Both the position numbers and the translations under genes were made by a program. This document shows, in pieces, positions 9,628-38,652 of a stretch of DNA of 64,000 nucleotides. The stretch is taken from assembly GCA_052035175.1 (NCBI GenBank), contig JBPOHV010000001.1, forward strand, positions 523,338-587,337. Direction: 5' to 3'. The notes below the pieces were generated by a model, which did not search any database, was not told the DNA's origin, and was given only the letters and a program-made list of their open reading frames with translations. Within the stretch, counting starts at the first letter, position 1. Every line of letters starts with the position of its first letter. This DNA is from a candidate division WWE3 bacterium (GTDB taxonomy: Bacteria > Patescibacteriota > WWE3 > UBA101185 > UBA10185).

Positions 9628-9819
9628 TAGAAACTATAAATCCTGAAGTAATAACAACTCCTGCAGAAGCGTATAACGAAGTAATTGGGCTTGAAAGTTT
9701 ATTGGGATTATTAAATACTGCAAAAGCTCAAAAAGTGCCTACGAATCAAATGATTCAAATGGTCCAAGATATAATTAGTTAGCTTTGCAGAGATCTTAAT
9801 TTTTGCAGCGCATGTTAGA

Positions 9820-9893
9820 GCGATGCTAAGTGTTTTTTTGAGGTAAGGATGATATGCAGCCGTCCTTGCCGAAAAAAAATGCTTAGCGTCGCT
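9820..9893. repeat. Hairpin with conserved 20-nt loop motif AGGATGATATGCAGCCGTCC (copy 2)
   Basis: Long imperfect stem gcgatgctaagtgttttttt/aaaaaaaatgcttagcgtcgc encloses the 20-mer at 9846-9865. Sits between the convergent SLT and leuS genes. Confidence 0.6.
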
Positions 9894-9900
9894 TATGAAG

Positions 9901-12345
9901 TTATGCAACAATATTTATAATCTTACCTTTGACATAGATAAAGTTTACGATAGATTTACCATCCAAATGCTTTTGTACATTTACAGAATTTAAAGCAAGC
10001 TCTTTTATATCAGCTTCGTTTATGTTTGCATCTACTTCTATTTGGTCGCGACGTTTACCATTGATTTGAATTGGGATAATTAATTTTTCTACAGAAAACA
10101 AAGACGCGTCTACTTTTGGCCAAGATTGTAAATGTACGCTGTTTTCTTTTTTCCATTCACCAAATTTATTTGCATCTTGCCACAAGTCTTCGGCTAAGAA
10201 AGGCATAAATGGCGCAAAGATTTTTATAAATGATTTCCAAACTTCTAAAGGAATAACAGCTTCTTTTTTCAAAATATTTGTAAATTTCATAACTTCGCTT
10301 ACAGCGGTGTTCATTTTTAACCCTTCAAGCATTGGAGTTATTGCTTGAACTGTTTTATTAAAAGCGACAGATAAATGTTGCACTTGTTGGTCTTTGACTT
10401 TGTCTTTTAACTCATACAAAGATCTTGCTAGTTTGAAACACGCGTGCAAACTGCGTTCATTCCAAGGATAAGTTTCTTCGTATGGGCCTAAAAATGCAAA
10501 ACAAATACGTATTGCATCTGCACCATAATTTTCAATTACATATTCTGGATTAACTGTATACTCAGGGCGAGATTTGGACATTTTTTTATGGTCAGCACCC
10601 AAAAGCATACCTCCGCTCATTCTCCAATTAATAGGCTCTGATACAGGAATATGCCCCATATCGTGCAAAGCTTTCACCCAAAATCTAGTATAAATTAAAT
10701 GAGCAGTTGTGTGCCCAGCGTCTCCAAAATATTTATCAACAGGTAACCAATATTTCAATTTTTCTTTATCTGCAAAAGCGTTATCATTTTTGGGGTCGAT
10801 ATACCTTATGTAATACCAATTTGACCCAGCCCAAGTTGGCATCGTTTCAGTTTCTAATTTTGCGGGATTGCCTTGAGAATCTACTGTTGTATTCCATTGT
10901 GTATTTCTCGCCAAAGGGCTCACGCCTTTATCGTCTGGCAAAAAGTCTTGCATAACTGGAAGTTCTAAAGGTAATTTATCTTCTGGAAGAGCTTCTATTT
11001 CACCATTTTGTTTATGTACCAATGGAATAGGTTCACCCCAATATCTTTGGCGTGAAAATATTTGGTCTCTTATTTTATAATTAGTCTTGCGATAGCCCCA
11101 GCCTTTTTCTTCAAAATAGTCTGCAATTTTTGTTGTCGCTACGTGAATATCCATTCCATTCAAAAAATCTGAATTTACCATGGTGCCTTCAGCTTCTTGG
11201 ACTTGATCTGCATTAATTATCTCTGAAGTATCACCATCGCTAGCAACCGCAACACGCTTAATAGGTAAATCAAAAGCTTTTGCAAAAGCAAAGTCTCGTT
11301 TATCGTGGCCGGGTACTCCCATAACTGCACCTGTGCCAAATTGATTTAATACAAAATCAGAAATCCAAATTGGCAACTTTTCATTGTTTAATCTATTCAA
11401 AACATAAAAACCTGTAAACACACCTGTTTTAACTTTACCTTCGGAGAGTCTTTCTAATTCAGATTTATTTGCTGCTTGTTTAATGTACGCTTGGACTTCG
11501 GGCAATTCTGATTTTTGAGCAAATGAGTGCTCGGGTGCCAAAACTACAAAAGTAGCGCCAAAGCTAGTATCTGGCCTAGTTGTAAAACATTCAATTATTT
11601 CAGAAGTTTCAGAACCATCTTCATTTAATACTGGGTATTTGATTACTACACCTACAGATTTACCTATCCAATTGATTTGGCCCAATTTAACCGAATCCAT
11701 GTAATCAACTTGAGATAAACCTTCCAAAAGCTTTTCAGCATAGGCCGGTATATTCAAAACCCATTGTTTAAACATTTTTTTGACTACAGGATGGCTATCT
11801 CTTTCAGAAACTTTTGATCCGTCTTCTTTTGTCAAAACCTCTTCATCAGCCAAAACACCCAAAGCTTCGCACCACCATACAGGCATTTCTTTTTGATAAG
11901 CCAAGCCTTTTTCCCAAAGTTTTATAAACATCCACTGAGTCCATTTGTAATAAGAAGGGTCACATGTATTTACTTCACGACTCCAATCTATTGCATAACC
12001 CATTTTTTGCATTGCAGATTTATAATCTACAGTGGCTTTGGCAATAGCTTCTTGAGGAGTAATGTGCTCTTTTATGGCAAAAGTTTCTGCGGGCAAACCA
12101 AAGCAATCCCACCCCATAGGAAATAATACATTGTAACCTTGCATTCTCAAAAACCTCGAGTAAATCTCTGGGACCGTATATCTCATCATATGGCCAGCGT
12201 GCAGATATTTACCAGAAGGGTAGGGGAGTTCAGCCAAAATGTACTTCTTGGGTTTTTCAGAAAAATCTACTGCTTCATAGATATTGTCTTTATACCAATT
12301 GTCGCGCCATTTATCTTCGATGTTTTTATGATTGTAATCTCCCAT
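9901..12345 (-). CDS. leuS: Leucyl-tRNA synthetase
   Basis: Class I aaRS with a HIGH-type motif (HAGHMM) and KMSKS. Large CP1 editing region. The ORF extends to 12402, but MGDYNHKNIEDKW (start ~12345) matches the usual LeuRS N-terminus, and the repeat-A copy at 12371-12391 then falls in the 5'UTR. Confidence 0.9.
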   Translation of the reverse strand: MGDYNHKNIEDKWRDNWYKDNIYEAVDFSEKPKKYILAELPYPSGKYLHAGHMMRYTVPEIYSRFLRMQGYNVLFPMGWDCFGLPAETFAIKEHITPQEAIAKATVDYKSAMQKMGYAIDWSREVNTCDPSYYKWTQWMFIKLWEKGLAYQKEMPVWWCEALGVLADEEVLTKEDGSKVSERDSHPVVKKMFKQWVLNIPAYAEKLLEGLSQVDYMDSVKLGQINWIGKSVGVVIKYPVLNEDGSETSEIIECFTTRPDTSFGATFVVLAPEHSFAQKSELPEVQAYIKQAANKSELERLSEGKVKTGVFTGFYVLNRLNNEKLPIWISDFVLNQFGTGAVMGVPGHDKRDFAFAKAFDLPIKRVAVASDGDTSEIINADQVQEAEGTMVNSDFLNGMDIHVATTKIADYFEEKGWGYRKTNYKIRDQIFSRQRYWGEPIPLVHKQNGEIEALPEDKLPLELPVMQDFLPDDKGVSPLARNTQWNTTVDSQGNPAKLETETMPTWAGSNWYYIRYIDPKNDNAFADKEKLKYWLPVDKYFGDAGHTTAHLIYTRFWVKALHDMGHIPVSEPINWRMSGGMLLGADHKKMSKSRPEYTVNPEYVIENYGADAIRICFAFLGPYEETYPWNERSLHACFKLARSLYELKDKVKDQQVQHLSVAFNKTVQAITPMLEGLKMNTAVSEVMKFTNILKKEAVIPLEVWKSFIKIFAPFMPFLAEDLWQDANKFGEWKKENSVHLQSWPKVDASLFSVEKLIIPIQINGKRRDQIEVDANINEADIKELALNSVNVQKHLDGKSIVNFIYVKGKIINIVA

Positions 12346-23926: not shown

Positions 23927-24001
23927 GGGGGTGTAGCTCAGTGGTAGAGCAGCGGCCTCTTAAGCCGCGTGTCGAGGGTCCGATCCCCTCCACCCTCACC
24001 A
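23927..24001 (+). tRNA. tRNA-Lys (anticodon CTT), CCA encoded; its 3' end serves as an integration site
   Basis: Acceptor gggggtg/caccctc (one G·U pair). D-arm gctcagtggtagagc. Anticodon stem gcggc/gccgc with loop ctcttaa. T-arm gaggg-tccgatc-ccctc. A -10 tataat lies at 23907-23912. Confidence 0.85.
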
Positions 24002-24018
24002 TTTAAACAAATTATTCC
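23982..24018 (+). repeat. Direct repeat DR-L (attL-like): tRNA-Lys 3' end plus 17-nt flank
   Basis: The 37-mer gatcccctccaccctcaccatttaaacaaattattcc recurs at 29658-29694 with 35 of 37 identical. Its first 20 nt also recur at 24130-24149. Confidence 0.7.
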
Positions 24019-24039
24019 GTTGTTACAATTTTATAGATG

Positions 24040-25446
24040 TTAAGTTATAGGTAAGGGATCGGATGCCGGACCCCGCTTAGCGGGGGAGGCGGGATCGACG
24101 GGCGAGCTAGCAAGCGAGAACCGGTGATCGATCCCCTCCACCCTCACCAATAGATGAGATGCGTTGTCCACGCCACCCTGCTTAAAGCGGAACAGCGTGC
24201 TTAAAGTTGGTGTTTTAAATCCCGGATATTGATAATAGAGGTTTTCAGGAAAAATAATCTTTTGTAGTTCTGTTTTTCTTTCGAACGACAGCTTTTCCCA
24301 CAGAGTTCTAGGATTTTGGTACAACCGAGAAATCTCATACTCAAATTTCGCATTTTCAAACTTTAAATTTTCGTTTTTATTTAATTTTAGATATTTACCC
24401 TTCGTGAGAAACAAAAGCGCGTTTACGGAGCTCCTAAGCGGTCTGATTTCATCTAGTAGTGACTTAAACTCAGACTCAAGAACATCTTTATGAACAGTTT
24501 TTCCTTTAGTTATGGGGTAATAGTATGGATAATGTTTTGTCTTGCCCTTGCACCAGGAACCAGTGAAGCTAGTATTAGATATTGCACACTTAACTAAAAC
24601 TCTTAATGGAAAGTCATCTTTTCTATAACTTTTGGGTTTACCAAGGGGTTTCGATGCCGCAAGTTTTTGTAATTTATCCCACTCATGGTCAGTAAACATA
24701 GCATCATGTTTTCCTTCGTAGATGTTTTCAGTCTTCTTAAATTTAATTACACCCTTGTAAAAGGGATTTCTAATAAACTTACCTACAAAATTGGAGCCTA
24801 CTTTTTTCCCACTTTTGGTTTTTATGCCACTTTCATTTAAATGTTTAGCAATTTCTTGAAAAGAGTAACTGCCTGTCAAATATAGATGGCCAGCATCCTT
24901 TAGTATCGAAAAATTTGGTTCATCTCTTATCGGCACCCTATGATCTTGACCTATATGCTCTAATCTATATCCAATTGGAGGCACGCTTACCGGATAACCT
25001 GCTTGAACGCGCTTTTTTATACCGTCACGGGCCCGCTCAGCTCTAATTGCATTATCTAGTTTGGCTTGGGCAGCAATTAACGTTTCAATAAACTCCCCCA
25101 TAGGTGTATTATCCGTAAACTCTGTAGCTGACTTAATAACTACGCCATAATCTTGTAATCGTCGTTTTATGTCTAAATAATCAATTGTGTTGCGTGATAG
25201 CCGATCTAGTCTGTACACAATCAAGTGTGTTATTTTACCTTTAGATTTTCTGCAGTACTCCAGTAGTCTTATAAGTTCTGGGCGTTCCGCAGTTGCTGCC
25301 GATTTTCCTTCATCTCGAAATATTTCAATAATTTCAAGCTCCTGTAATGCACTGTAGTTACGACAGTAATCTTCCTGATTTGATAACGAAAAATTATTTA
25401 CTTGTTCTTCACTGCTTACTCGGAGATAAGCTATAGCTTTTTTCAT
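24040..25446 (-). CDS. Large serine recombinase (resolvase/invertase catalytic domain + recombinase domain)
   Basis: 468 aa. Catalytic serine motif (AIAYLRVSSEEQ). DEGKSA, LIVYRLDRLSRN and the dimerisation helix are present. The C-terminal ~35 aa are Pro/Ser/Ala-rich and are encoded by a GC-rich segment that contains the extra att-core copy at 24130-24149. Confidence 0.8.
   Translation of the reverse strand: MKKAIAYLRVSSEEQVNNFSLSNQEDYCRNYSALQELEIIEIFRDEGKSAATAERPELIRLLEYCRKSKGKITHLIVYRLDRLSRNTIDYLDIKRRLQDYGVVIKSATEFTDNTPMGEFIETLIAAQAKLDNAIRAERARDGIKKRVQAGYPVSVPPIGYRLEHIGQDHRVPIRDEPNFSILKDAGHLYLTGSYSFQEIAKHLNESGIKTKSGKKVGSNFVGKFIRNPFYKGVIKFKKTENIYEGKHDAMFTDHEWDKLQKLAASKPLGKPKSYRKDDFPLRVLVKCAISNTSFTGSWCKGKTKHYPYYYPITKGKTVHKDVLESEFKSLLDEIRPLRSSVNALLFLTKGKYLKLNKNENLKFENAKFEYEISRLYQNPRTLWEKLSFERKTELQKIIFPENLYYQYPGFKTPTLSTLFRFKQGGVDNASHLLVRVEGIDHRFSLASSPVDPASPAKRGPASDPLPIT
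24130..24149 (+). repeat. Third copy of the 20-nt tRNA-Lys 3' end (gatcccctccaccctcacca) inside the recombinase C-terminal coding region
   Basis: Exact 20-nt match to 23982-24001. It is not part of a foldable tRNA. Confidence 0.6.
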
Positions 25447-25902
25447 AAAAACAGCCGCACTGGTAGTTGTAAACAGAACCTAAGGCACTGTTAACCAATG
25501 CGGCCATTTTAATACCCTAGACTTAACTGCTTACAACTTAATCAATTATAAACTAAGGGACTTGACACTCAAACTTCCTAACATGCTAGTATATGGCAGC
25601 TCAATTTGAGCTCGATGGCCCTACCTACACAGGGTGGCTTTAGCCAAGGGTGTAGGCCGACCGTAGCGAACGAAACGACCGACGGGTGAAAACGGGTCAG
25701 TTTATCTGACTATATGCTCTTAGGTTTTACACTTAAGAGATGAGAAACCTCAGACGAAATACTCAAAAGTTCTTAAAAGTTATTTTTTGACGAGCTTGCG
25801 AGTCGTCTAGGAGATATCCTGAGGGAGTGAGGGAAGCGAAGGGAGGACCCCCGGAGTTGTGCGTATAGGGGCGAAGGGGGTTTGGGGGATGTCGTGACAT
25901 CG
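25447..25902. other. GC-rich 455-bp non-coding region between the recombinase gene and a cargo gene; candidate structured RNA or att/regulatory region
   Basis: No ORF. Nested hairpins (cctacac...gtgtagg at 25621-25653; gacga...tcgtc at ~25790-25808). Purine-rich block GAGGGAGTGAGGGAAGCGAAGGGAGGACCCCCGGAG at 25821-25855. Confidence 0.35.
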
Positions 25903-26277
25903 TTAACTTTGATACACACCAGTTATTTTATTTAGCTCCTGGATATATTTAAGTCTAGTTAAATAGTCAGGCAATTTAACTCCACCAATAATTTGGTACG
26001 CGTATAAACCCTCGGTAACCACCTCCATGTATTTTTCCAATACATCTGATACTACCAATGCCTCAGATAAAGCTTTTCTGAAATTAAGCCTATTTAAGTT
26101 TTGTGAAGAAATAACTGCTGCGGATTTACGGTTTTTCACATTGTAAAAACGTTCAGTAGAACTGACAGGATCAAAAGGTTTCCCATCTTTCACCCTGTTT
26201 GCAATATCTTTAATTACAAGCTGTTGTTTTATACTGAGACCAAATGGATTGCTAATATTTCTAGTTACTCTAGGCAT
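25903..26277 (-). CDS. Hypothetical protein (element cargo); weak resemblance to a terminase-small-subunit-type HTH
   Basis: 124-aa ORF. The N-terminal segment LSIKQQLVIKDI is HTH-like. This is weak evidence. Confidence 0.35.
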   Translation of the reverse strand: MPRVTRNISNPFGLSIKQQLVIKDIANRVKDGKPFDPVSSTERFYNVKNRKSAAVISSQNLNRLNFRKALSEALVVSDVLEKYMEVVTEGLYAYQIIGGVKLPDYLTRLKYIQELNKITGVYQS

Positions 26278-26336
26278 TTATATATTATACAATCTAGTTT
26301 TTTACTAAAATGCCACAAAAGAGGTAATATGTTCCT

Positions 26337-27485
26337 ATGTTGGACACAAATAACTATAGAAAATCTGACAAATGGTTAAGGCTAAGGTTATTAAATAGTA
26401 ACCTTGTAAGCCTTACGACTAACACCGATATTGAGGCAGAGTACTGGGGAGTTATCGAGTATATATCTGAAATAGAAGAGGCAGGAGTTAACTTCTTAAT
26501 TAGTAGAGGATACAATCGCAAAGATGCTAAACAGAACTATAAAGTTTTAAACTCCTACGTAAGACAAGCAAAAAATTATTACCTTACCGCGAAGAGCTTG
26601 CAGTACAGGTCAGCCCCTTTGATGTACTATTACTCCTTTCTTAATCTAGCAAAAGCATTTCTGTTAGTTAACGACATACACTATAAAGAAGTAAAGATTA
26701 AACACGGTCTCATTTATAAATACCCCGGAAAGCGCGATATCAATAAACAAAATGTGATTTCCGCAGACTCAGCCAATGAAGTCTTTCCTAGACTATATAA
26801 ATTATGGTTCGGACAACCACTAGAGTTGAAATCGTTTAGTATCCTTACTTTACTGGGCTACTGTAGCGAGATAGCATACCAGTATGAAAAGGCGAAACTT
26901 GGAAATAGAAGAGTAGATCCAGCACTATATGTAGGCGTTTCAGACTCAAAATTAAAAACTTCTTGGGCATTGTTGGGCTTGTCTAACTTTGATGAACTAA
27001 AAAAGTATAAAAAGACTACTAAAACACTAACTAGTAATTTCTCTATAGTGTCGCCCCCTCAACATGTACTCAGAGAAATGTTTGATATGAATGCTTGGGA
27101 ACTAGCAAACTTTACTTTCTTGCAGTCCAATAAAACTCTCCCATGGTTATCCGATAATGTACCGGCACCTACAAATACACAAGTCTTTGGTGCTCTTAAA
27201 AATTTATATCAGGTAAACTATTTTTCGGGAAACTTCGACTTTTTCACAAGATTACCTTATCAACCTAACAATCAAAAGGATATGGATGAGAGCATGGCAA
27301 CCTATATAATATTATTTTTCTTATCAAATCTAGTTAGATACTGGCCTTCAGTTTTGGAGTCATATTTGCTGGCTAGGGATACATGGTTAATTGAAGGCTT
27401 TATACGGTCATGCCCACATACATTACTACGAGCATTTATTTCGAGGATTGTAAATGAGGATGTGGTAATAACTTCAAAAGACTAA
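26337..27485 (+). CDS. Hypothetical protein (element cargo)
   Basis: 382-aa ORF with no confidently recognisable domain. Confidence 0.45.
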   Translation: MLDTNNYRKSDKWLRLRLLNSNLVSLTTNTDIEAEYWGVIEYISEIEEAGVNFLISRGYNRKDAKQNYKVLNSYVRQAKNYYLTAKSLQYRSAPLMYYYSFLNLAKAFLLVNDIHYKEVKIKHGLIYKYPGKRDINKQNVISADSANEVFPRLYKLWFGQPLELKSFSILTLLGYCSEIAYQYEKAKLGNRRVDPALYVGVSDSKLKTSWALLGLSNFDELKKYKKTTKTLTSNFSIVSPPQHVLREMFDMNAWELANFTFLQSNKTLPWLSDNVPAPTNTQVFGALKNLYQVNYFSGNFDFFTRLPYQPNNQKDMDESMATYIILFFLSNLVRYWPSVLESYLLARDTWLIEGFIRSCPHTLLRAFISRIVNEDVVITSKD

Positions 27486-27491
27486 AAGGGA

Positions 27492-28526
27492 CTAAACCAT
27501 AAAAGTATCCCGTATAGCCGTAAACTCTGAAACCGCTTTGAAGTAGCTCTCTAATTGCATGTAACTCCTAAACCGAAAGTTTTCTTTATTTTTATAATAC
27601 GGATCTGTATTTATAAACTTCTCATATAGGTGGAAGTCCTTATTGGAAGCTATGATAAAGAGTTTTGTAGATAGCGGGCTTAGTTGACACAAGCGCTGCA
27701 TACCGCTTAATATTTTAGTGCTATGCTCAACCTCAAAGGCTGCCACAGGGACTTCGTCTCTTAACCAAATGACGTCAATTTGATTTACTAGTTTTAATAT
27801 ATCCTCACCTAGAAATCTTTTGGGCACTTCCCGTAACGAGATGTAGTCTAGTAATTTTTCTCCAAAAGCTTCTACGCTTTTATCCGGACAATATGTATCA
27901 AAGCCAAGCAGTTTACCTATTTTTAACAATAACAATTGGGCTTCAGCATGGGCACTGATATGATTTTCTTCTTCCAAGTCGCTTTCTGCAGCAGAAGTAT
28001 CAGACGAGTAATGATGCGCAAACGAGTCTAAATCACCAAATTTAGACAAAATCGCCGCAAGTCCTTGCTCGTTTATAGGCATAAAACCTTGGACAATCAT
28101 ATTTCTGCTGTATCCAGCAAAATCCGCAATATCTGTGATTGGTATATAAACAGGCTTGAGGTCGTTTAAAAAGAAAATACAAGTCCAGGGCTCTTCACCT
28201 TTCTTAGGGGGCCATAATGACACGCCCAAATCAGCACTATGTTGCTTAAAAAGCAATTTACCCGCATAGACAAGTTTTCCTTCTCGTTCTTTACCTTCTC
28301 TTCCCTTATAAAATAGAACTAAGTCTCCAGGTTCCAACTTTTCCCAGGAGCTTTTTTTAGAGTCTTTTGTACCCCACGCAAAAATTTTAGCCTCTTTTGA
28401 AAGAAGATCCTTACCCTCTCTAGTCAGATGGGGCTCGATTATAGAGTAATCGACACCGTTATCGATTGTACTTAAAAAGTTTTTATAGGAGGTTTCGTTG
28501 GATCTCGGTGCCAAAAATATGTTCAC
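27492..28526 (-). CDS. PUA-like (EVE/ASCH-type) domain protein with a possible C-terminal PD-(D/E)xK nuclease domain
   Basis: 344 aa. The N-terminal region (IFAWGT...WEKLEPGDLVLFYKG...KLVYAGKL...PVYIP) resembles the EVE GDLVLFYHS hallmark. The C-terminal segment (IDVIWLRDEVPVAAFEVEHSTK) is compatible with a restriction-endonuclease-like D...E-x-E...K core. Confidence 0.4.
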   Translation of the reverse strand: MNIFLAPRSNETSYKNFLSTIDNGVDYSIIEPHLTREGKDLLSKEAKIFAWGTKDSKKSSWEKLEPGDLVLFYKGREGKEREGKLVYAGKLLFKQHSADLGVSLWPPKKGEEPWTCIFFLNDLKPVYIPITDIADFAGYSRNMIVQGFMPINEQGLAAILSKFGDLDSFAHHYSSDTSAAESDLEEENHISAHAEAQLLLLKIGKLLGFDTYCPDKSVEAFGEKLLDYISLREVPKRFLGEDILKLVNQIDVIWLRDEVPVAAFEVEHSTKILSGMQRLCQLSPLSTKLFIIASNKDFHLYEKFINTDPYYKNKENFRFRSYMQLESYFKAVSEFTAIRDTFMV

Positions 28527-28688
28527 AAAGCTATTTTACCACTATAGCCTCGAAAATGAGCGATTTTAAAAAATATTGTAAATTTAGGAGTGCGGTTTTA
28601 GCCAGTTGTATTTCTTGTAGGGACAAGTACACACATGCCCCCCTATAGTTAGTTATAGAAGGAGAAACCAACGTTATATAATAGATTT

Positions 28689-29558
28689 ATGGGAAAGCTA
28701 ACCCCTTTAAGTACAGAAGATCAAAAAATGATAGAGAGTCTTGCGGAGTTTGTCGATGATGTCAAAAACAACTTATGTAGTAAAACAATCTACATAAATG
28801 CACTTAAGCCCAAACAATTTTTTATACTTTCTATGTATGCGGCAGTAAATAGCTATACCGAAGCTATACACGACTTATGCAAGTTAAGACGCCCTGAAGC
28901 AGCCATTGTAATACTCAGGTCCATAACAGAAGCTTGGATTAACTCAGTGTATATCTTAAGTTCCACAAATGACCGGGCACTACATCATTATGCTCTGGAA
29001 GGATCGTATAATAAGAAGTCTCTAGTACAACAATTTAGGGAGTTTTACGAGAAATATCCAAAACTTAGAACAGCTGTTCTAACGGATGAAGCCTTAATGA
29101 AAATGGAGGCTATCGCAATGCAAGAACTGCAAAATTATAAAGTAAAAATTAATATAGATTATGCAAACAAGAACGAGTTTAAAGATGTATGGGGCGACTT
29201 GTATAAAAGATCTGTTTGGTCTGACACCCGCTTGAAAAAACGCCAGAAAGATAAAGCCGGAGGTATAGAACATACTTATATGCTTGTATATAGATATTTG
29301 TCTGACTATACCCATTTATCTGTAACTGGTTTGGAGCATTTTTGGACAAAGGATACACATGGTAGTCGTTACCTTACACTGGACAAAAACCCGGAAAAAT
29401 TAGATATGATACTCGCCACAAATTACAGTTTATACCTCTACTTTGCAGCAAAACTGAAGCAATATAATCTGATTGATAGTTCTTTGTCTAAATACACAAA
29501 TTTCTTCGATAAAAACATTTTGAAGAAAAACAAACAAACAGCGCCTGATATTACATAA
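28689..29558 (+). CDS. Hypothetical protein (element cargo); possible HEPN-like Rx6H motif near the C-terminus
   Basis: 289-aa ORF. RYLSDYTH fits the Rx4-6H pattern. Otherwise there are no motifs. Confidence 0.4.
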   Translation: MGKLTPLSTEDQKMIESLAEFVDDVKNNLCSKTIYINALKPKQFFILSMYAAVNSYTEAIHDLCKLRRPEAAIVILRSITEAWINSVYILSSTNDRALHHYALEGSYNKKSLVQQFREFYEKYPKLRTAVLTDEALMKMEAIAMQELQNYKVKINIDYANKNEFKDVWGDLYKRSVWSDTRLKKRQKDKAGGIEHTYMLVYRYLSDYTHLSVTGLEHFWTKDTHGSRYLTLDKNPEKLDMILATNYSLYLYFAAKLKQYNLIDSSLSKYTNFFDKNILKKNKQTAPDIT

Positions 29559-29624
29559 CTTACTTGTACTAATATCCAACCACTAAATTATGAGTTCAAG
29601 GATCATTTCTGATAGCAGGTCTAG

Positions 29625-29897
29625 GCTGTCGAAATCACCTCTACCCGAGAGAGCTTCGATCCCCACCGCCCTCACCATTTAAACAAATTATTCCATGTAC
29701 CCCGCATAAAGGCTGGGCAAAAAACCACAACATGGAGACTATTTGACGACAAAGATTTAAAAGTAAACGATGAAATTGAACTCATAAGCCGACCAGACCT
29801 TAAAACATTCGCAGTTGCAAAAATATTGGAAATTACTGAAAAACCAGAAAATACTTTGGTAAAAGTACTAAAGTTTAAAATATCAAAATTTCTATAA
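29625..29897 (+). pseudogene. ASCH/PUA-like ORF with no start codon, reading through DR-R (possible gene remnant or non-canonical start)
   Basis: Open frame ...IKAGQKTTTWRLFDDKDLKVNDEIELISRPDLKTFAVAKILEI...KFL*. The G-x-K-T-x-E-x-R...V-x-D-x-I pattern resembles the ASCH N-terminus. There is no ATG, GTG or TTG in frame after the upstream stop. Confidence 0.3.
29658..29694 (+). repeat. Direct repeat DR-R (attR-like): degenerate tRNA-Lys 3' end plus the identical 17-nt flank
   Basis: gatccccaccgccctcaccatttaaacaaattattcc differs at 2 of 37 positions from DR-L. The sequence upstream of it does not fold as a tRNA. Confidence 0.7.
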
Positions 29898-31621: not shown

Positions 31622-31696
31622 GCGAGAGTAGTTCAGTGGTAGAACGCTTCCTTGCCAAGGAAGAGGTCGCGGGTTCGATCCCCGTCTCTCGCTCCA
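31622..31696 (+). tRNA. tRNA-Gly (anticodon GCC), CCA encoded
   Basis: Acceptor gcgagag/ctctcgc. Anticodon stem cttcc/ggaag with loop ttgccaa. T-loop ttcgatc. Confidence 0.85.
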
Positions 31697-31699
31697 TAT

Positions 31700-32521
31700 A
31701 TGCACAAAGCATTTGAAACAACAGCACAAAAAGTCCAAGACACAATCGACCAAGTCTTTTTTTATAAAATGGGATATGAAGATGTAGGCTCGGCAATGGG
31801 TGATATTTTTGCACACGATGGTATCCACAAAGGCGCAGCTGTCAAAGCCTGTTTGTCTTTAATATATCAACTACTACCAGATAAACAGAAAGATTTAATA
31901 ACTGCTGAGTATACAAAAAACTTCCCTTTAGCGATTCAAAACAGCAATCTTGAGGCAATAGGTAGCGGTGGCGCCAATACTGTATTTCGAAATAGTAATC
32001 TGCCAGAAGCATATATTTTTTGTGTAAATAGAAATAATTGTAACTCTACTAAAGAAGCCTTTGAAGAAGCACAAACTATAAAAAACGATTATGCGCAAAT
32101 AAAAGAAATCTATGCAGAACTACCAGACCTTATTCCGTCAGAAGACTACTTCTTGGGAGAAAACAAAAAGAGACAACCGCTGGTCATGTCCATCAGAAGG
32201 TTTGTAGATGGAGATATAAAAGATATATTTACAGATTATACACAAGTAGAGTTAAAAGCACTGCTGTCAGAAAATCCTACGCTTGCACAGCAATTAAACA
32301 AATTTGTTGAAATAACCACAAGGAATAACGCTTTCTTTATACAAAACGAAGTAGATATTATTGGCAAGAAAAACTTAAGTATCGTTACAAATGGGAACAA
32401 TGCTCCAAATTTAGTTTTTTTGGATCCACATACCGTTGCAGAAAGACATCGAAATGACCAACATAAAGAAATTATTACACAAAGACTAGAATACCTAGAA
32501 AATATTATCAAACAGAGCTAG
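31700..32521 (+). CDS. Hypothetical protein
   Basis: ORF 31652-32521 with the start moved to the first ATG after tRNA-Gly (MHKAFETTAQ...). No recognisable motifs. Confidence 0.45.
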   Translation: MHKAFETTAQKVQDTIDQVFFYKMGYEDVGSAMGDIFAHDGIHKGAAVKACLSLIYQLLPDKQKDLITAEYTKNFPLAIQNSNLEAIGSGGANTVFRNSNLPEAYIFCVNRNNCNSTKEAFEEAQTIKNDYAQIKEIYAELPDLIPSEDYFLGENKKRQPLVMSIRRFVDGDIKDIFTDYTQVELKALLSENPTLAQQLNKFVEITTRNNAFFIQNEVDIIGKKNLSIVTNGNNAPNLVFLDPHTVAERHRNDQHKEIITQRLEYLENIIKQS

Positions 32522-32840
32522 TAACTGTTATTTCCAAAAACTCGTAATCAGGGTAAGCAAACGAAAAGTATTTAATCGGCATACTCAACTCCTCAGCCAG
32601 CTTTATTTCGGCAGCCACACCATCAGAAATCTCACCAAAAACCCATAATTCGTCGCTTCTGCGAATAAGTTCGTTATTTGCTGCAATAAGCCTGGCACGT
32701 TCAACAGTATCGAGCAAAAAGTATGAGTACATCATAAAAGCACACGTAGGAGTATAGTTATTTTCTATTATGAACTTGACGATATGTTCGCGCAGGTAAA
32801 AGTTTGTTTTACTCATTGCTGCAAAAACAACTCTATTCAT
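32508..32840 (-). CDS. Nucleoside 2-deoxyribosyltransferase-like / DUF4406-like small protein
   Basis: 110 aa. Motif WVFGEISDGVAAEIKLAEELSMPI resembles the E-x-G-x-A region of the NDT-like family. A distant paralog of the gene at 6629-7282 is possible. Confidence 0.35.
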   Translation of the reverse strand: MNRVVFAAMSKTNFYLREHIVKFIIENNYTPTCAFMMYSYFLLDTVERARLIAANNELIRRSDELWVFGEISDGVAAEIKLAEELSMPIKYFSFAYPDYEFLEITVTSSV

Positions 32841-32904
32841 TCTGCGCCAATTCTATCAATTTAAAACAAGCTATGGTAGTATTTTTATGTTAATTCGACC
32901 ATGT

Positions 32905-32980
32905 GGGGCGGTAGCCAAGGTGGTCAAGGCACCGGTCTGAAAAACCGGCTATGTGGGTCCGACTCCCACCCTCCCCACCA
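32905..32980 (+). tRNA. tRNA-Phe (anticodon GAA), CCA encoded
   Basis: D-arm with G18G19. Anticodon stem ccggt/accgg with loop ctgaaaa. T-arm gtggg-tccgact-cccac. Acceptor ggggcgg/cctcccc with one C·U mismatch at 5-68. Followed by the palindrome gttgttataacaac. Confidence 0.75.
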
Positions 32981-32987
32981 ATTGTTG

Positions 32988-33692
32988 TTATAACAACGAA
33001 TAGTACTGGTTATAAAAATTAATAAAATCACTAATACTTACCGTTTTGTTTTCAAATTTTTCTCTAATATTTTCCAATCTAATTTCATACTCTTTTTCGA
33101 GAACTTTTTCTTTAGGGTACATAAAATCAATGAAATCTATTGAATTTTGAATATATTTATTGAATATCTCTGCAAATTCCCACAATTTCTTTTTATCTAA
33201 ATTCTTATATTTATCCATATAGTCATAAAAAATGAAATGAAGCATTTCGTGAGCAATTATTGTTGTTGAAATGCCCTGTTGAATCGCACCAAAGAATAAC
33301 TGAAAACTCTTTTCCTTCTTAATAAGAGTATTTATATCGATTACAGATAGATAACAATTGTAGTCTCCTTCTGGAAACGAATGTCCCTCAAACACACTCT
33401 CACACAAATCAAGAAATATAACTTCTTTCTCTTTCCATAATCTTTCTGCCTTATTTTTAGCCTCTGACAATTCTTTTGTGTAGTCACTGTGAATCTTATT
33501 AATAGTATTCACCAATAATTCTTTTTCTTTTGACTGGGCATACTTATCTAGTGCGGGGTATTGCTCAATTAATCTTTCTCTTTTTTCAAAACCTCCTGAT
33601 TTATCCGGATTGCTAAAAAAGAAATCAGTGTAAATTATATCTAGTTGTTTACACCTTTCGTTTAGTACAAAAGTTACATTAGGTTTATACAT
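32988..33692 (-). CDS. Hypothetical protein with an HExxH motif (putative zinc metallopeptidase)
   Basis: 234 aa. The motif IIAHEMLHFIF is present. There is no tyrosine-recombinase signature, so this is not an integron integrase. Confidence 0.35.
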   Translation of the reverse strand: MYKPNVTFVLNERCKQLDIIYTDFFFSNPDKSGGFEKRERLIEQYPALDKYAQSKEKELLVNTINKIHSDYTKELSEAKNKAERLWKEKEVIFLDLCESVFEGHSFPEGDYNCYLSVIDINTLIKKEKSFQLFFGAIQQGISTTIIAHEMLHFIFYDYMDKYKNLDKKKLWEFAEIFNKYIQNSIDFIDFMYPKEKVLEKEYEIRLENIREKFENKTVSISDFINFYNQYYSLL

Positions 33693-33715
33693 ATTTATAT
33701 TCTACATTAACAAAA

Positions 33716-33746
33716 AAGTTCGCAACTTCATTCACGATAGACCACC
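33716..33746 (+). repeat. Cassette-boundary repeat R1 (31-nt left arm only): AGTTCGCAACTTCATTCACGATAGACCACCA
   Basis: Matches the first 31 nt of the 100-bp repeats at 34556 and 35425. Confidence 0.7.
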
Positions 33747-33979
33747 AAAGAAAATATGCTGGTATTTTGGCCAGCAGATTTTGTTTAATGAGAGTTAGGA
33801 ATTGAACCTGGGTCGACAATTCGAATGAAATGAGAATTGCAACGTTCTCGAACGAAGTGAGGGGTTGTTATTCTCACTCTTCCCACCATAGAAGCAAACA
33901 CTCGTTTTACCCTTTTATTACAAATATTTCGATTTTGGCTATAGTAGGTGAGAAATTGTTCTACTGATATAATGAATTT

Positions 33980-34552
33980 ATGAAAAAGCTTATGGCTGTA
34001 TTTATTATGGGAATTTTACTACTAGGATTTATTTTTCATAGAAAATCAGCCAGCTTTATAAAAATACCAGAGGAAACTCTTAATTCTCTTTGTTACGGAC
34101 TAGATGAATCCAGCTGTTTGGGTACAGAAGTTTGTAGACCAAAGTATGAACATATAGATCAAAATAAATGCCCAAAAGGAGAGTTTTGTACGACAGAGTA
34201 TAAACTACCTTATAAAAAGTTTCTCTATTGCGAAAAAATACCAAGTGATGAGTTATACTCCGCTAAGACTAATAAAAAATATTGTGTTGGTGAATATGCA
34301 ACATGGTCAGAAAATGAAAAACCAGGTAGGTGCTTTTGTGGATATACTGATTTTAGCAATGAACAAAGAGAATACCATGGTTATGTCGATTTTGTCGAAG
34401 GGTATGGGTGTATCACAGCAAGAGAACTTTGCGAAAAACTAAACGGTGTATTCGAACCCGACCCAAGCAATGCTTATGAGTGGTGTAACTATCCTGATGG
34501 CACTAGGGAGCACGTATATATTCCAGAAACCTCTAAAAAACTGGAACTATAA
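33980..34552 (+). CDS. Cysteine-rich secreted protein (cassette 1)
   Basis: 190 aa. N-terminal signal or TM segment. More than 14 Cys in the mature part, with repeated C-x-x-E/K-x-C spacing. Confidence 0.5.
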   Translation: MKKLMAVFIMGILLLGFIFHRKSASFIKIPEETLNSLCYGLDESSCLGTEVCRPKYEHIDQNKCPKGEFCTTEYKLPYKKFLYCEKIPSDELYSAKTNKKYCVGEYATWSENEKPGRCFCGYTDFSNEQREYHGYVDFVEGYGCITARELCEKLNGVFEPDPSNAYEWCNYPDGTREHVYIPETSKKLEL

Positions 34553-34555
34553 AAA

Positions 34556-34655
34556 AGTTCGCAACATCGTTCACGATAGACCACCATGAAATCCTCGCTG
34601 TCCTAGCAACATAATCCAATGGTTTACAATTTGATAGTGAGTGGGAAGTTGAACT
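34556..34655 (+). repeat. Cassette-boundary repeat R2: 100-bp imperfect palindrome ending in GTTGAAC (attC-like or MITE-like)
   Basis: Left end AAAGTTCGCAAC... and right end ...GTGAGTGGGAAGTTGAACTTT form an imperfect inverted repeat with bulged bases. Its 3' 80 nt are identical to R3. It exactly fills the gap between two convergent genes. Confidence 0.75.
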
Positions 34656-34658
34656 TTT

Positions 34659-35393
34659 TTATACAGATAGCAGTTTTAAAATATCTTCTTTTGATTTGGG
34701 TTTACCCTCTGATCCCAATAACCATAAGGCTTTATCAAACTCTAACCAACTTGTGTTTGTGTTCTTACAGGCAGTACTCCATAAAATCTTTGTAGTCATA
34801 ATATTTTTTTGTGACATAGTATCACTATCAACAAATCCCATTAAATAGGCTATACGTACATCATGAACATCAACTGGTGGCAACATCTCATTAACATCAA
34901 CGTATTTAAAATTAAATGTGTTAATCATTGTTCTAATGAAAAAGTTTCCAATTTTTGGCCCAAACCCCCTAAACTCCTTTATTCTTCTCTCAACATCCTT
35001 AACAAGTTCGGTATTCATTAGTATATTTAGTGGATTACCCTCGTATTTATCTAACAATACTTTTGAATTTATTGTGTATCGACGAACTGCTTCATTAATG
35101 TAACGAGGATGCAAATGAGATTTTAGAATTTCAGATAACCTTTGTTCTGGAATGCTCAATATATTATTGGGAGTGAAAAAAACCGGTATATCTTTAACTA
35201 GACTACGAGCACCTTCATACAAACGTTGTGATTTGGTTGCATAGTCTAGTTGAGTCACATAAAACAAAAATAATGCCCTAAACAGGTCGGTTCCACTAGG
35301 AGCTAAGTCCTCTGCATTTTTGTGACTACTAAATATTCCTTCATACTTTTCATAACCATTGGTTACTATAGTTACGAACTCCTCGGGTTTCAT
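34659..35393 (-). CDS. Hypothetical protein with a possible helix-hairpin-helix motif (cassette 2)
   Basis: 244 aa. FRGFGPKIGNFFIRTMI resembles the HhH G-h-G-x-K-h-A motif of HhH-GPD-type proteins. Weak evidence. Confidence 0.35.
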   Translation of the reverse strand: MKPEEFVTIVTNGYEKYEGIFSSHKNAEDLAPSGTDLFRALFLFYVTQLDYATKSQRLYEGARSLVKDIPVFFTPNNILSIPEQRLSEILKSHLHPRYINEAVRRYTINSKVLLDKYEGNPLNILMNTELVKDVERRIKEFRGFGPKIGNFFIRTMINTFNFKYVDVNEMLPPVDVHDVRIAYLMGFVDSDTMSQKNIMTTKILWSTACKNTNTSWLEFDKALWLLGSEGKPKSKEDILKLLSV

Positions 35394-35424
35394 GTATAAA
35401 TTATAGTCTTATTTTGTATAAAAT

Positions 35425-35524
35425 AGTTCGCAACTTCATTCACTATAGACCACCATGAAATCCTCGCTGTCCTAGCAACATAATCCAATGGTTTACAATT
35501 TGATAGTGAGTGGGAAGTTGAACT
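35425..35524 (+). repeat. Cassette-boundary repeat R3: 100-bp imperfect palindrome ending in GTTGAAC
   Basis: 96% identical to R2. Stems AGTTC/GAACT, AACTTC/GAAGTT and TCACTAT/ATAGTGA, with extrahelical GC, A and CCAC. Confidence 0.75.
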
Positions 35525-35545
35525 TTTTAGAGTTATACTAATAAC

Positions 35546-35992
35546 ATGCGTAAGAATTCAGATCGAAAGTCTCGCCCTAAGGTTGTATTAGTAAATCGTG
35601 CCATTGTATTAAATGAAAATAGAGAGATATTACTACTAAAAAGAACTGAAAGTGATTCATGGATGCCAGGAAAATGGGAACTACCAGGTGGCAAGTTAGA
35701 TCCCGGACAAGATATTTCTAATGCATTAGAAAGAGAGGTCCTAGAAGAGACTGGGTTGGTAGTAATTCCAACAGATAAAACTGCCTATTGGCATAGTGAA
35801 ATTATTTCATCAGGAAAATATAAAGGCTTGCCATATATTGTTCTTGTTGGCGTAGTAAAATCGTTAGGCGGGAAAGTAAAGCTTTCCGAGGAACATGAAG
35901 AGTTTTGCTGGACCGACGAAAATGATGTTTTTGATTATGATTTAGTTCTAGAAACTAGATCAGCGCTGACTGTATTGAGGGCTAAAATTTAA
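35546..35992 (+). CDS. NUDIX hydrolase (cassette 3)
   Basis: 148 aa. Nudix box GGKLDPGQDISNALEREVLEETG. Confidence 0.75.
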   Translation: MRKNSDRKSRPKVVLVNRAIVLNENREILLLKRTESDSWMPGKWELPGGKLDPGQDISNALEREVLEETGLVVIPTDKTAYWHSEIISSGKYKGLPYIVLVGVVKSLGGKVKLSEEHEEFCWTDENDVFDYDLVLETRSALTVLRAKI

Positions 35993-36003
35993 AAAGCTGC
36001 AAT

Positions 36004-36034
36004 AGTTCGCAACTTCATACACAATAGACCACCA
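36004..36034 (+). repeat. Cassette-boundary repeat R4 (31-nt left arm only) abutting the next start codon
   Basis: AGTTCGCAACTTCATACACAATAGACCACCA ends 5 nt before the ATG at 36040. Confidence 0.7.
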
Positions 36035-36039
36035 AATTT

Positions 36040-36276
36040 ATGTTAAATAAAAATGATTACCCAATAAACGAAGCAACATTTTACCTGCACAGATTGGCTA
36101 GAGGATTTGCTTGGGTTTTTCTCGCAACAGGTGTGGCTATAGTACCGTTAACAGCAATATTTCACCCAGAAGAACTAAAGACAAACATTACGGGTATTAC
36201 TCTAGGTACTCTATTAGCACTCAGCATATCTATGTGCCTATTTTATGCAACTAAAATCTTGAGTAAATTGAAATAA
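36040..36276 (+). CDS. Small membrane protein (cassette 4)
   Basis: 78 aa with two hydrophobic helices. Confidence 0.3.
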   Translation: MLNKNDYPINEATFYLHRLARGFAWVFLATGVAIVPLTAIFHPEELKTNITGITLGTLLALSISMCLFYATKILSKLK

Positions 36277-36328
36277 CAGTTGTCCAGCGCGCTACAAACC
36301 CATCTGCCTGTTATAATACCTATCGTAT

Positions 36329-37969
36329 ATGAATCCTGGAAAAACCTTAATACAACTCAATAGCGCTTCATTCAAATATCAAGGCCAAGATTACTTATTT
36401 GAAGATGTCAAACTAACCGTCCAAGCAGGAGATAAAACAGCCATTGTGGGAGCAAACGGAAGTGGAAAAAGCACATTATTAAAGATCTTAACCGGCCAGA
36501 TAGCTCTAGAAGAAGGTACTCATACTATCGATTGTAAACCTTATTACGTTCCTCAAATCAATTTAACAATTCACCAAAAAGACCTAAAAATCTATGAATA
36601 CATATCTGAATTCTATGAAGAATGGTGGGACATAATATCTGAAGTAGAAAAGACATTTTCACTTGTCATCGACGCAGAAACCGAAACAAAAACCTTGAGT
36701 GGAGGCGAGCTTATGAAGTTAAACCTTGCTATCGCGCTCAAACATGACCCCGATGTCTTGATTCTAGACGAACCCACAAATCATTTGGATGTAAAATCGA
36801 TAAACGCTCTTATTTCATTTATAAATGAATCTAGCAAAAATAAATATTCCTACATTATTGTTTCGCACGATGTGTTTTTCTTGGATCAAGTTGTAACCAA
36901 AATCTGGGAATTAGAAAAACAAAAAATTACTACTTACGGCGGTAATTACACTTTTTATAAAGAACAAAAAGCATTGCATTTGAGAGGCATAAGAAAACAA
37001 TACGAATTGGCAAAAGAAAAATTGGAAAAAGCAAAAGATTTACAACAAGATGAAATAGAAAAAAAAGCTAAAAAAGCCAATGAAGCTAAAAGAGCGTTTA
37101 TAAAAGGCAGTATTGATAAAAGAGCTTTTAATATGGGGAAAGAAGCTGCTTCGTCTTTGCAACATGGCAAGAGTATACAGCTTGAAAGGCTTGTAGAAGA
37201 CGCAGAAAGCCAACTTGAAGACACAGATATAGAACAACGCAAACTTGCGTTTATACATATGTTAAACACCAGTTCAAATGAAAACCGTACAATCTTTGAA
37301 TTAAAAGATGCTAGTGTAGAAACAAACGATAAGCAATTAATCTCTGGTATCAATCTTAAAGTTACTTATGGAAATCGAATATCAATATCGGGAGATAACG
37401 GCACAGGTAAAAGTAGTTTGGTAAGGGGCTTGCTCAAAAGGAAAGATCCAAATACAAAATATGTACACAACCAAAACATAGAATTGAAAGGTGATATTTA
37501 TTTGGGCGAAAATATGTCTTGGGTTTATATTGACCAAAACTATAGTTTGATAAATCCAGATTTAACTTTAATACAAAATTTGACGGCGTCTCATCCGGAA
37601 TTGACTTTATCAAAAGCCAAAGAACAGTTAGGCAAACTTCAATTCAAAACCGAAAATGAATTAAAAAAGTTAGGAAAAGATTTGAGCGGCGGAGAAACAG
37701 TTAGGTTAGCAATGGCCATAGTTACAGCATTTCCAATCGACTTACTAATCCTTGATGAACCTACCAACAACCTAGATGTTGAAACAGTAAACGTTTTGGT
37801 GAAATCTATTAATATGTTTAGAGGTGCTATTATTGTTATTTCCCACAATATAGACTTTTTACACCGCATAAATATTAAAAATTCTTATATTATCAAAAAC
37901 AAAAAACTTAACCAAATGAATGTCGACCCCAGTAAAAAAGAAGCTTTTTATAAAATTTTGACGTCTTGA
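36329..37969 (+). CDS. ABC-F family ATPase (two ABC domains, no TMD)
   Basis: 546 aa. Two Walker A sites (GANGSGKST; GDNGTGKSS). Two signature/Walker B sets (LSGGELMKL...LDEPTNHLD; LSGGETVRL...LDEPTNNLD). Charged linker. Confidence 0.8.
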   Translation: MNPGKTLIQLNSASFKYQGQDYLFEDVKLTVQAGDKTAIVGANGSGKSTLLKILTGQIALEEGTHTIDCKPYYVPQINLTIHQKDLKIYEYISEFYEEWWDIISEVEKTFSLVIDAETETKTLSGGELMKLNLAIALKHDPDVLILDEPTNHLDVKSINALISFINESSKNKYSYIIVSHDVFFLDQVVTKIWELEKQKITTYGGNYTFYKEQKALHLRGIRKQYELAKEKLEKAKDLQQDEIEKKAKKANEAKRAFIKGSIDKRAFNMGKEAASSLQHGKSIQLERLVEDAESQLEDTDIEQRKLAFIHMLNTSSNENRTIFELKDASVETNDKQLISGINLKVTYGNRISISGDNGTGKSSLVRGLLKRKDPNTKYVHNQNIELKGDIYLGENMSWVYIDQNYSLINPDLTLIQNLTASHPELTLSKAKEQLGKLQFKTENELKKLGKDLSGGETVRLAMAIVTAFPIDLLILDEPTNNLDVETVNVLVKSINMFRGAIIVISHNIDFLHRINIKNSYIIKNKKLNQMNVDPSKKEAFYKILTS

Positions 37970-38652
37970 TGATAGATACTTTAAATATACGCCAGACAGA
38001 TAAAGTTTTATTTATTTACCCACATCCAGACGACGAAACATTTTTCAATGCTGCACTAATTCAAAGATTAATCAAAAATGGGACAGACATATTTATATTA
38101 TGTTTAACAAAAGGTGGCGCTAGTACTTTGACGCACTCTCTTAAATCAAAAGAACAATTAAAACAGGCGCGAACACTAGAATTTGAAAGTGTAATGAAAT
38201 ACTTGAAAGTAACAAACTATCAAATCTTCGACTTACCAGACGGGCAATTACTTCAAAACCAACAACAAACTTATGATTTGATTAAACGTAAAATCGCCGA
38301 ATTGTCTCCAAATACGATAATAACTTACGAACCATCAGGTATTTATGGGCATCCAGATCACATATTAGTTAGCGAAATAGTCACCCAATTGACCAAAACC
38401 TTAAACAAAAGGCTTATTTATTCTACAGTAGCCATAGATTACAAATCTTCAGAAAATTCTTTAAAAATGGCTACAGATATAACCAAAGTACAGCCATTAG
38501 CCCCAAACAGTGGGTTGAAACTTACAGTTGCAGAATACTTATCAAAACTTAATGCATTGCGCTTATACAAGTCGCAAGTAAGCCTTAAACATGAGTTTAG
38601 ACACAAGTTATATGGCTTATATAAAATGGTGTATGAGTATTATGTAGCATAA
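37966..38652 (+). CDS. PIG-L/LmbE family N-acetylglucosaminyl deacetylase
   Basis: 228 aa. Zinc-binding HPDDE motif (LFIYPHPDDETF). A downstream HxxH-type HPDH is present. Confidence 0.7.
   Translation: MMIDTLNIRQTDKVLFIYPHPDDETFFNAALIQRLIKNGTDIFILCLTKGGASTLTHSLKSKEQLKQARTLEFESVMKYLKVTNYQIFDLPDGQLLQNQQQTYDLIKRKIAELSPNTIITYEPSGIYGHPDHILVSEIVTQLTKTLNKRLIYSTVAIDYKSSENSLKMATDITKVQPLAPNSGLKLTVAEYLSKLNALRLYKSQVSLKHEFRHKLYGLYKMVYEYYVA

Follow-up and report, generated by a model that had tools for sequence, protein, structure and literature searches.

We analysed a 64-kb window from a candidate division WWE3 bacterium (7% of a 925-kb genome; window G+C content 35.5%), in which a series of short single-gene units lies directly downstream of tRNA-Phe. 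The units are bounded by copies of a repeat that consists of a 31-nt motif, here called L, followed in the long copies by about 70 nt called R; a unit is an optional R, a gene and an L. The best named matches of the window proteins belong to candidate division WWE3, and the CCA ends of the window tRNAs are encoded in the DNA. Candidate tRNAs were called with ARAGORN and Rfam, and gene families were assigned with Pfam.

The array and its repeat

The features of the locus are listed in Table 1. The gene-bearing units are 0.58-0.87 kb long and contain one gene each; the genes are found in both orientations, each with its own -10 box. tRNA-Phe, located 740 nt ahead of copy 1 and in the orientation of the repeats, anchors the array and is proposed to provide the left half of its attB site. 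This anchor, together with the tRNA-like nature of both halves of the repeat, is the decisive feature of the locus. The preliminary description of this region overlooked the anchor, as well as the minus-strand gene at 32988-33692, the diverged R of copy 1 and the gene-less unit. It correctly listed the Cys-rich, HhH-like and NUDIX genes and their mixed orientation, but counted as enclosed the 78-aa ORF that lies after the last repeat. The 244-aa glycosylase has no direct Pfam match; its homologues carry weak precomputed HhH-GPD/AGOG Pfam hits.

Table 1. Features of the tRNA-Phe array, its right flank and the tRNA-Lys island (window coordinates)
Feature	Position	Strand	Basis and remarks
tRNA-Phe(GAA), end ...CCCTCCCCACCA	32905-32980	+	ARAGORN; Rfam tRNA, 60.8 bits
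Unit A	32981-33747	+	ORF list; L1 (33717-33747), exact pattern match; no R after tRNA
Gene of unit A: 234-aa HExxH-motif protein, family unknown	32988-33692	-	no Pfam match
Gene-less mini-unit	33748-33888	+	diverged R, conserved segment M (~65 nt), partial tRNA-Phe 3' end
Unit B	33889-34586	+	degenerate R (about 33889-33973), gene, L2 (34556-34586)
Gene of unit B: Cys-rich 190-aa protein, N-terminal hydrophobic segment	33980-34552		ORF list
Unit C	34587-35455	+	R 34587-34658 (nhmmer, E 1.7e-21), gene, L3 (35425-35455)
Gene of unit C: HhH-GPD/AGOG-like DNA glycosylase, 244 aa	34659-35393	-	family from Pfam hits of homologues
Unit D	35456-36034	+	R 35456-35527 (nhmmer), gene, L4 (36004-36034)
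Gene of unit D: NUDIX hydrolase	35546-35992		Pfam, E 6e-18
78-aa hydrophobic ORF, flank past last L	36040-36276		not enclosed by repeats
ABC-F ATPase, flank past last L	36329-37969		
Large serine recombinase, sole recombinase in window	24040-25446	-	Pfam Resolvase and Recombinase domains
tRNA-Lys(CTT) island, 5.6 kb	23982-29694 (with tRNA-Lys, 23927-29694)	+	flanking 37-nt direct repeats

The motif AGTTCGCAACTTCATWCACDATAGACCACCA was matched at 33717, 34556 (two mismatches), 35425 and 36004, always on the plus strand, with no match expected from 100 shuffles; the fourfold occurrence had been reported before, with the first copy misplaced by one nucleotide (33716). Copies 2 and 3 (34548-34659 and 35417-35528) are 96% identical and extend over 112 nt, not 100 nt as described earlier. 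Both terminate in GTTGAAC, and their first ~25 nt are an imperfect reverse complement of the last ~25 nt, in agreement with the preliminary description. Every copy is intergenic and adjoins a start or a stop codon, so the claim that the repeats lie at gene boundaries also stands. The sequence after L4 is unlike R.

Both halves of the repeat resemble parts of a tRNA. The start of L, AGTTCG, resembles a tRNA T-loop, and its end, CCACCA, resembles a tRNA 3' terminus. The end of R, GTGGGAAGTCGAAC followed by a T-run, is an inverted copy of the T-loop/T-stem of tRNA-Phe (GTTCGACTCCCAC). In three other genomes (L001, L002 and L004) the ...CCACCA of the real tRNA-Phe is directly followed by R, the tRNA standing in place of L. 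Thus the 100-nt element is made up of a pseudo tRNA 3' end and the sequence that in these other genomes follows the tRNA. The L sequences of the window and of L001 are identical in 30 of 31 positions, and their tRNA-Phe genes in 63 of 76.

The mini-unit between units A and B contains no gene. Its R (33748-33807), which is the diverged right part of copy 1, holds a terminator-like hairpin, and its end is formed by a true partial tRNA-Phe 3' end, CTCACTCTTCCCACCA (33873-33888). Positions 33798-33889 are 86% identical over 93 nt to positions 9816-9908 of the related locus L020; in L020 this segment has tRNA-Phe on one side and, on the other, 16 nt that repeat the 3' end of tRNA-Phe exactly. It is from this match that a gene-less mini-unit ending in a true partial tRNA-Phe is recognised in the window. 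The partial tRNA agrees in 15 of 16 positions with the tRNA-Phe type of L017 and L018 and in 13 of 16 with the window's own tRNA-Phe, which points to a foreign or older origin. The degenerate R of unit B was recognised by similarity of positions 33921-33973 to an R copy of L007 (82% over 55 nt, E 1.8e-8).

Several other interpretations of the repeat were considered and rejected. Neither ARAGORN nor Rfam recognises in L the 3' half of a real tRNA, a tRNA that is permuted or split, or a tmRNA, and no T-arm/acceptor pairing could be built by hand. At the gathering threshold, Rfam reports only tRNAs in the whole window; at E values up to 10 (positions 33500-36400) and up to 5 (four related loci), there is no hit to L, R or M, nor to the 95-nt L002 insert described below. 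A cis-regulatory element of 5' or 3' untranslated regions was rejected because the copies are found between convergent, divergent and tandem gene pairs and keep one orientation. A dif/Xer-type site does not fit, as L has no dyad symmetry by inspection. No sign of a viral or phage origin came from pattern scans of viral contigs or from blastn against phage genomes.

The preliminary description compared the repeat with the attC sites of integrons. The locus would then be an integron cassette array without a nearby integrase (CALIN), and an IntI encoded elsewhere would act on its attC sites as folded single strands. Indeed, single-gene units are separated by imperfect palindromes of about 100 nt with bulges, and the GTTGAAC end observed in this genome fits the consensus GTTRRRY. 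However, this is the only genome where it does: elsewhere the 3' end is mostly GTCGAAC, with a broken GTT triplet, or a further variant, and the 5' end of the repeat, TCGCAAC, does not fit RYYYAAC. The proposed attC hairpin folds no better than shuffled controls, the z-scores of L+R being -0.4 to -1.95 for the plus strand and -0.4 to -1.25 for single-stranded DNA. The tRNA 3' half with R of L002, folded as single-stranded DNA, yields z-scores of -2.7 and -2.8, better than shuffles. RNAalifold finds no consensus pairs in the full-length copies, and among 12 copies, in which the inverted repeat is in register (see below), only two compensatory cells are observed, at or below the level of shuffled controls. 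The conserved feature of the repeat is its sequence, not its structure. The double orientation of the genes and their own -10 boxes also speak against integron cassettes, as does a junction at CCACCA rather than at the 3' end of the repeat (see below). No Phage_integrase-type protein or IntI is encoded among ORFs of at least 100 aa in the 64-kb window, and neither a tyrosine recombinase nor a transposase was found there, consistent with the earlier remark that no integron-type integrase is adjacent. We consider the integron explanation extremely unlikely.

Arrays in other genomes

Exact-pattern scans of one genome per species identified L001, a Patescibacteria metagenome-assembled genome (MAG) from Hainich groundwater, and L002, a MAG labelled Saccharibacteria; scans of JGI metagenomes identified L003 (the same organism as L001), L004 and L005. 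The same L/R units bound single genes in at least seven other Patescibacteria assemblies, downstream of tRNA-Phe and co-oriented with it, and the content of the units differs in every genome compared. The preliminary view of the region as a cassette-like array is thus upheld, and the search in related genomes that it suggested does retrieve further copies, behind tRNA-Phe. An array is found at the 3' end of a co-oriented tRNA-Phe in the window, L001/L022, L002, L004, L015, L020 and L025. All L hits in the window, L001/L022/L023, L002, L004, L015 and L025 are downstream of and co-oriented with tRNA-Phe. L hits were counted over the window and the related loci (327 kb in total; the related contigs are mostly short), and wherever the tRNA is on the contig, no L was observed outside the tRNA-Phe arrays. 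In L001 and L002, a motif profile search added diverged L copies at further gene boundaries.

The closest homologue of the glycosylase (67% identity) is encoded on L007, a 4-kb contig with six L+R copies, where each gene is bounded by a copy. Another homologue (62%) is found in the L015 array, which has at least five L copies behind tRNA-Phe; the gene is antiparallel to L, and the flanking L and R are unrecognisable. More distant homologues have no L and are found in a uvrABC neighbourhood and in a glycosyltransferase cluster. Homologues of the SHMT-family gene that has L on its flanks in L001 led to two more loci. In L020/L021 the order is tRNA-Phe, a 124-nt insert, R-like sequence and SHMT, and in L025 tRNA-Phe is followed by ORF197 with a truncated L, an HD protein with L, and R, SHMT and L.

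The units behave as modules. The rank of R-SHMT-L behind tRNA-Phe changes from genome to genome: it is third in L025 and second in L001 and L004, and in L020, where SHMT is followed only by a degenerate L recognised by eye, no other gene-bearing unit precedes it. The units ahead of it differ; the genes preceding it in L001 and in L004 are both kinase-like, but they are unrelated to each other and opposite in orientation. The unit composed of R, the minus-strand glycosylase gene and L has equal geometry in the window and in L007, with different neighbours. Such modularity is what would be produced by tRNA-proximal insertion combined with exchange of whole units.

The positions at which the elements break are informative. 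L is followed by a truncated R or by sequence other than R at L4 of the window, at 5326 in L001, at 1533 in L002, in L005, and at 2558 and 4582 in L015; L copies without a full R after them are mostly, though not always, the last ones visible in the array. In L002 a 95-nt insert separates the CCACCA of L from another CCACCA, to which R is attached. The 124-nt insert of L020 has on both sides 16 nt of the tRNA-Phe 3' end, as exact repeats that terminate at CCA. R occurs in two subtypes, and these have exchanged places between L002 and L004, two loci with identical tRNA-Phe genes; thus R is carried along by the units and does not belong permanently to the tRNA locus. Taken together, the chimeras, the CCACCA-flanked inserts and the swapped R define the unit as an optional R, a gene and an L. 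We infer that the functional junction lies at or just after CCACCA, 31 nt inside the element. The insert of L002 (845-945, GATGACTTAG...GACGAATCG) belongs to no Rfam family and is not called as a tRNA.

These junctions bear on a second suggestion of the preliminary description, that of miniature inverted-repeat transposable elements (MITEs). A palindromic non-autonomous transposon of this kind, or one similar to repetitive extragenic palindromes, would have spread locally into gaps between resident genes. The imperfect terminal inverted repeats are compatible with it: when the start of L and the end of R are aligned in register, 75.6% of the cells are paired, compared to 36-49% for slid alignments (12 full-length copies from five assemblies). 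Moreover, some of the enclosed genes belong to widely conserved families. However, no target-site duplications were found at the repeats. The copies keep a single orientation and occur only behind tRNA-Phe in the 327 kb, and half-elements are fused exactly to the CCA end of the tRNA in three genomes with different R subtypes. Finally, a distant relative has tRNA-Phe and the ABC-F gene 73 nt apart with no genes between them. Local spread of such a transposon is quite improbable.

This relative, L017, has no L, and its ABC-F homologue is 66% identical to that of the window (the ABC-F homologues found have identities of 65-68%). In L018 about 880 nt separate tRNA-Phe from the ABC-F gene, with decayed PIG-L and kinase-like fragments and no L. 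In both relatives ABC-F is the conserved neighbour on the downstream side of tRNA-Phe. The interval between the two genes is 3.3 kb in the window and, relative to these relatives, consists of inserted material.

PIG-L and kinase-like genes or their fragments recur behind tRNA-Phe in L005, L018, L001 and L004. A few genes after ABC-F, L017 (4895-6001) and L018 (13624-14730) encode a PIG-L-NUDIX fusion of 368 aa. The window has instead a stand-alone PIG-L gene directly after ABC-F (37966-38652) and the stand-alone NUDIX gene of the array (35546-35992).

An independent short-read assembly of the same organism (L006, Logan contig, SRR34217543, positions 1-30) ends inside R of unit D. Repeats break assemblies, and thus arrays of this kind are probably under-represented in MAGs.

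Candidate mechanism of unit insertion

We consider it rather probable that the array consists of one-gene, integrase-less integrative units that were serially inserted at the ...CCACCA end of tRNA-Phe by a recombinase acting in trans. The anatomy of the junctions suggests a crossover at or just 3' of CCACCA, between a circular unit, whose joined L and R ends would form an attP-like site, and either tRNA-Phe or any resident L. Insertion at the tRNA would yield the order tRNA, R-gene-L, older units; the units would thus accumulate, with the oldest ones pushed away from the tRNA. As L mimics the tRNA end, the same ...CCACCA junction would be recreated at the distal end of each inserted unit. Recombination between two CCACCA-ending sites would excise the interval as a new circular cassette. 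The inverted motifs AGTTCG...CGAACT, which flank the junction at distances of ~25 nt (left) and ~65 nt (right), might be accessory binding sites, although this is a conjecture. Since the units carry no recombinase (none was found inside any unit of any array), the enzyme would have to act in trans.

An alternative is that the repeats are passive. On this explanation L+R would be a duplicated tRNA-Phe 3' region, perhaps a bidirectional terminator or insulator, and the genes would be exchanged by homologous recombination between ~100-nt repeats after DNA uptake. The A-run and the T-run placed symmetrically about the inverted repeat and the terminator-like hairpin in R of copy 1 could be explained in this way, as could the arrays having no linked recombinase. 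R is also nearly identical within a genome (96% in the window, about 97% in L001), which suggests gene conversion. However, L is 97-100% conserved across genomes whose tRNA-Phe genes differ by 17%, which would be difficult to expect from a passive spacer, and both the L-only copies and the tRNA/R chimeras break exactly at CCACCA. A simple terminator scan does not call L+R, and the folding of L+R is that of shuffled sequence. A length of 31 nt is marginal for RecA-dependent exchange. We regard passive repeats as a rather unlikely explanation.

Several observations weigh against serial site-specific insertion. True partial copies of tRNA-Phe are present in L020 (16/16) and in the window at 33873-33888. 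However, the agreement of L, the common repeat, with the real tRNA-Phe end is limited to GTTCG and CCACCA, and L exceeds that end by 6 nt; judged by its sequence, L is not an ordinary partial-tRNA direct repeat. Inverted core-type half-sites around CCACCA are not evident. The relatives without L are distant (ABC-F identity 65-66%), and neither circular forms nor excision products nor strain-level polymorphisms were seen. The SHMT family and the AGOG-like glycosylase are widely conserved in Patescibacteria and elsewhere reside in ordinary contexts, so a spread of repeats between resident genes could account for part of the pattern. The segment inserted after SHMT-L in L005 lacks an L on the side away from SHMT. 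The arrays have no linked recombinase; in L020 there is none within about 10 kb. The serine recombinases near the window and L022 arrays adjoin other tRNAs (Lys and Gln, respectively) and are only 25% identical to each other.

Serine recombinases and comparison with known systems

If units are inserted by an enzyme acting in trans, the best lead is a large serine recombinase, as one is encoded on a tRNA-Lys island of analogous layout in the same window, 8.5 kb upstream of the tRNA-Phe array. The direct repeats flanking this island (23982-24018 and 29658-29694) consist of the tRNA-Lys 3' end and 17 nt of flanking sequence, TTTAAACAAATTATTCC, and are identical in 35 of 37 positions. In addition to the recombinase, the island encodes a YaaC-like protein, a DUF5677 protein and proteins with no assigned function; its G+C content is 37.6%, compared to 35.5% for the window. 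The genome of L001 contains another serine recombinase island, beside tRNA-Gln, with a recombinase 25% identical to that of the window. Elements with serine recombinases that target tRNA ends thus do occur in these genomes, but the two islands do not connect such an enzyme with tRNA-Phe.

The segment between tRNA-Lys and the recombinase gene (24002-24149) is a G+C-rich stretch of 148 nt that closes with a third partial tRNA-Lys 3' end (24130-24149). At +53 to +62, 9 nt of the tRNA-Lys T-loop region recur exactly in inverted form (GGGATCGGA). Downstream copies of the T-arm in inverted orientation are not general among the tRNA genes of the window: such an exact 9-nt match was seen only for tRNA-Lys, the others being at the level of chance. 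The layout of 24002-24149 resembles that of the gene-less mini-unit at tRNA-Phe. The recombinase ORF reads through this stretch (468 aa, compared to 431 aa in L022), and thus its last ~40 codons may not be genuine.

The arrays share a number of features with integron arrays such as the Vibrio VCRs and CALINs. Both consist of ordered, mostly single-gene units without recombinases, each with an imperfectly palindromic site of ~100 nt; the sites are lineage-specific and homogenised within a genome, and new units seem to enter at one fixed end. However, the entry point here is the CCA end of a tRNA and not an attI beside intI, the site is tRNA-derived, and the junction is 31 nt inside it. Furthermore, the R'/R'' consensus is unmet, no structural covariation is observed, the genes are in both orientations with their own promoters, and no IntI was found in the window.

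Tycheposons of Prochlorococcus are tRNA-targeted elements with stacked arrivals, in which partial tRNAs mark old junctions (bioRxiv 10.1101/2020.12.28.424599), and additive flexible islands at tRNA genes, including tRNA-Phe, have been described in Alteromonas (PMC4898812). The arrays are similar to such islands in the integration at a tRNA, the older arrivals pushed inward, the variable content at a conserved place and the partial tRNAs at former junctions; some of these elements also use large serine recombinases. Unlike them, the units are of 0.58-0.87 kb and carry one gene, with no integrase or replication genes. For the most part the repeat does not copy the tRNA end; it mimics this end in a diverged form of 31 nt that is better conserved than the tRNA itself. 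An inverted T-arm copy (the end of R) is present at each junction, and the hosts are Patescibacteria.

Cis-mobilizable elements (CIMEs) of the ICESt type in streptococci are bounded by att sites, have no integrase of their own and are thought to be moved in trans, and they form tandem arrays with attP-like internal junctions. They are kilobases long, few in number, and reside beside a helper integrative and conjugative element. The units described here likewise have att-type sites on both sides and no recombinase inside, the candidate helper class being the large serine recombinases. In contrast to CIMEs, they form arrays of up to six one-gene units, and no linked helper was found. The pdif modules of Acinetobacter plasmids are also small gene modules with short conserved sites, and their recombinase is encoded outside the module. 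The pdif sites are 28-bp XerC/XerD sites with dyad symmetry and alternate in orientation, whereas L has no dyad symmetry and all its copies are direct.

The combination of one gene (0.6-0.9 kb) per unit, up to six units in 4 kb, no recombinase and a boundary that mimics a tRNA end is unusual. A literature search, with incomplete coverage, yielded no description of such arrays in bacteria of the candidate phyla radiation (CPR), which is weak evidence of novelty. One possibility, which we offer tentatively, is that the arrays are a gene-capture platform of Patescibacteria convergent with integrons, where genes enter at the CCA end of tRNA-Phe, the 31-nt mimic regenerates the site, and a recombinase encoded elsewhere inserts, excises and shuffles the cassettes. 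This enzyme is possibly a large serine recombinase specific for tRNA ends. Such a platform would provide compact exchange of accessory genes to bacteria with genomes below 1 Mb. Genomes of CPR/Patescibacteria are very small, and little is known about gene gain and loss in them; a recurrent hot spot for single-gene modules at tRNA-Phe would be a concrete route of gene flux. It would also be an independent answer to the integron problem, with a tRNA end and its mimic replacing attI and attC. With a length of 31 nt, or of about 100 nt if R is included, the sites are short and well defined, and a matching recombinase, if found, could be useful as a tool for site-specific integration.

The tRNA order Leu-Leu-Gly-Phe...Val-Gln is retained in the window (31622-32980), L004, L015, L018, L020 and L022. 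The distance between tRNA-Gly and tRNA-Phe is 47 nt in L004 and 1.0 to 2.7 kb elsewhere, with different genes in the gap, and this gap may be a second variable spot. In the window it contains a kinase-like ORF and the gene of a DUF7768 protein. The ORF at 31652-32521, as listed, overlaps tRNA-Gly, and thus its true start must be further downstream.

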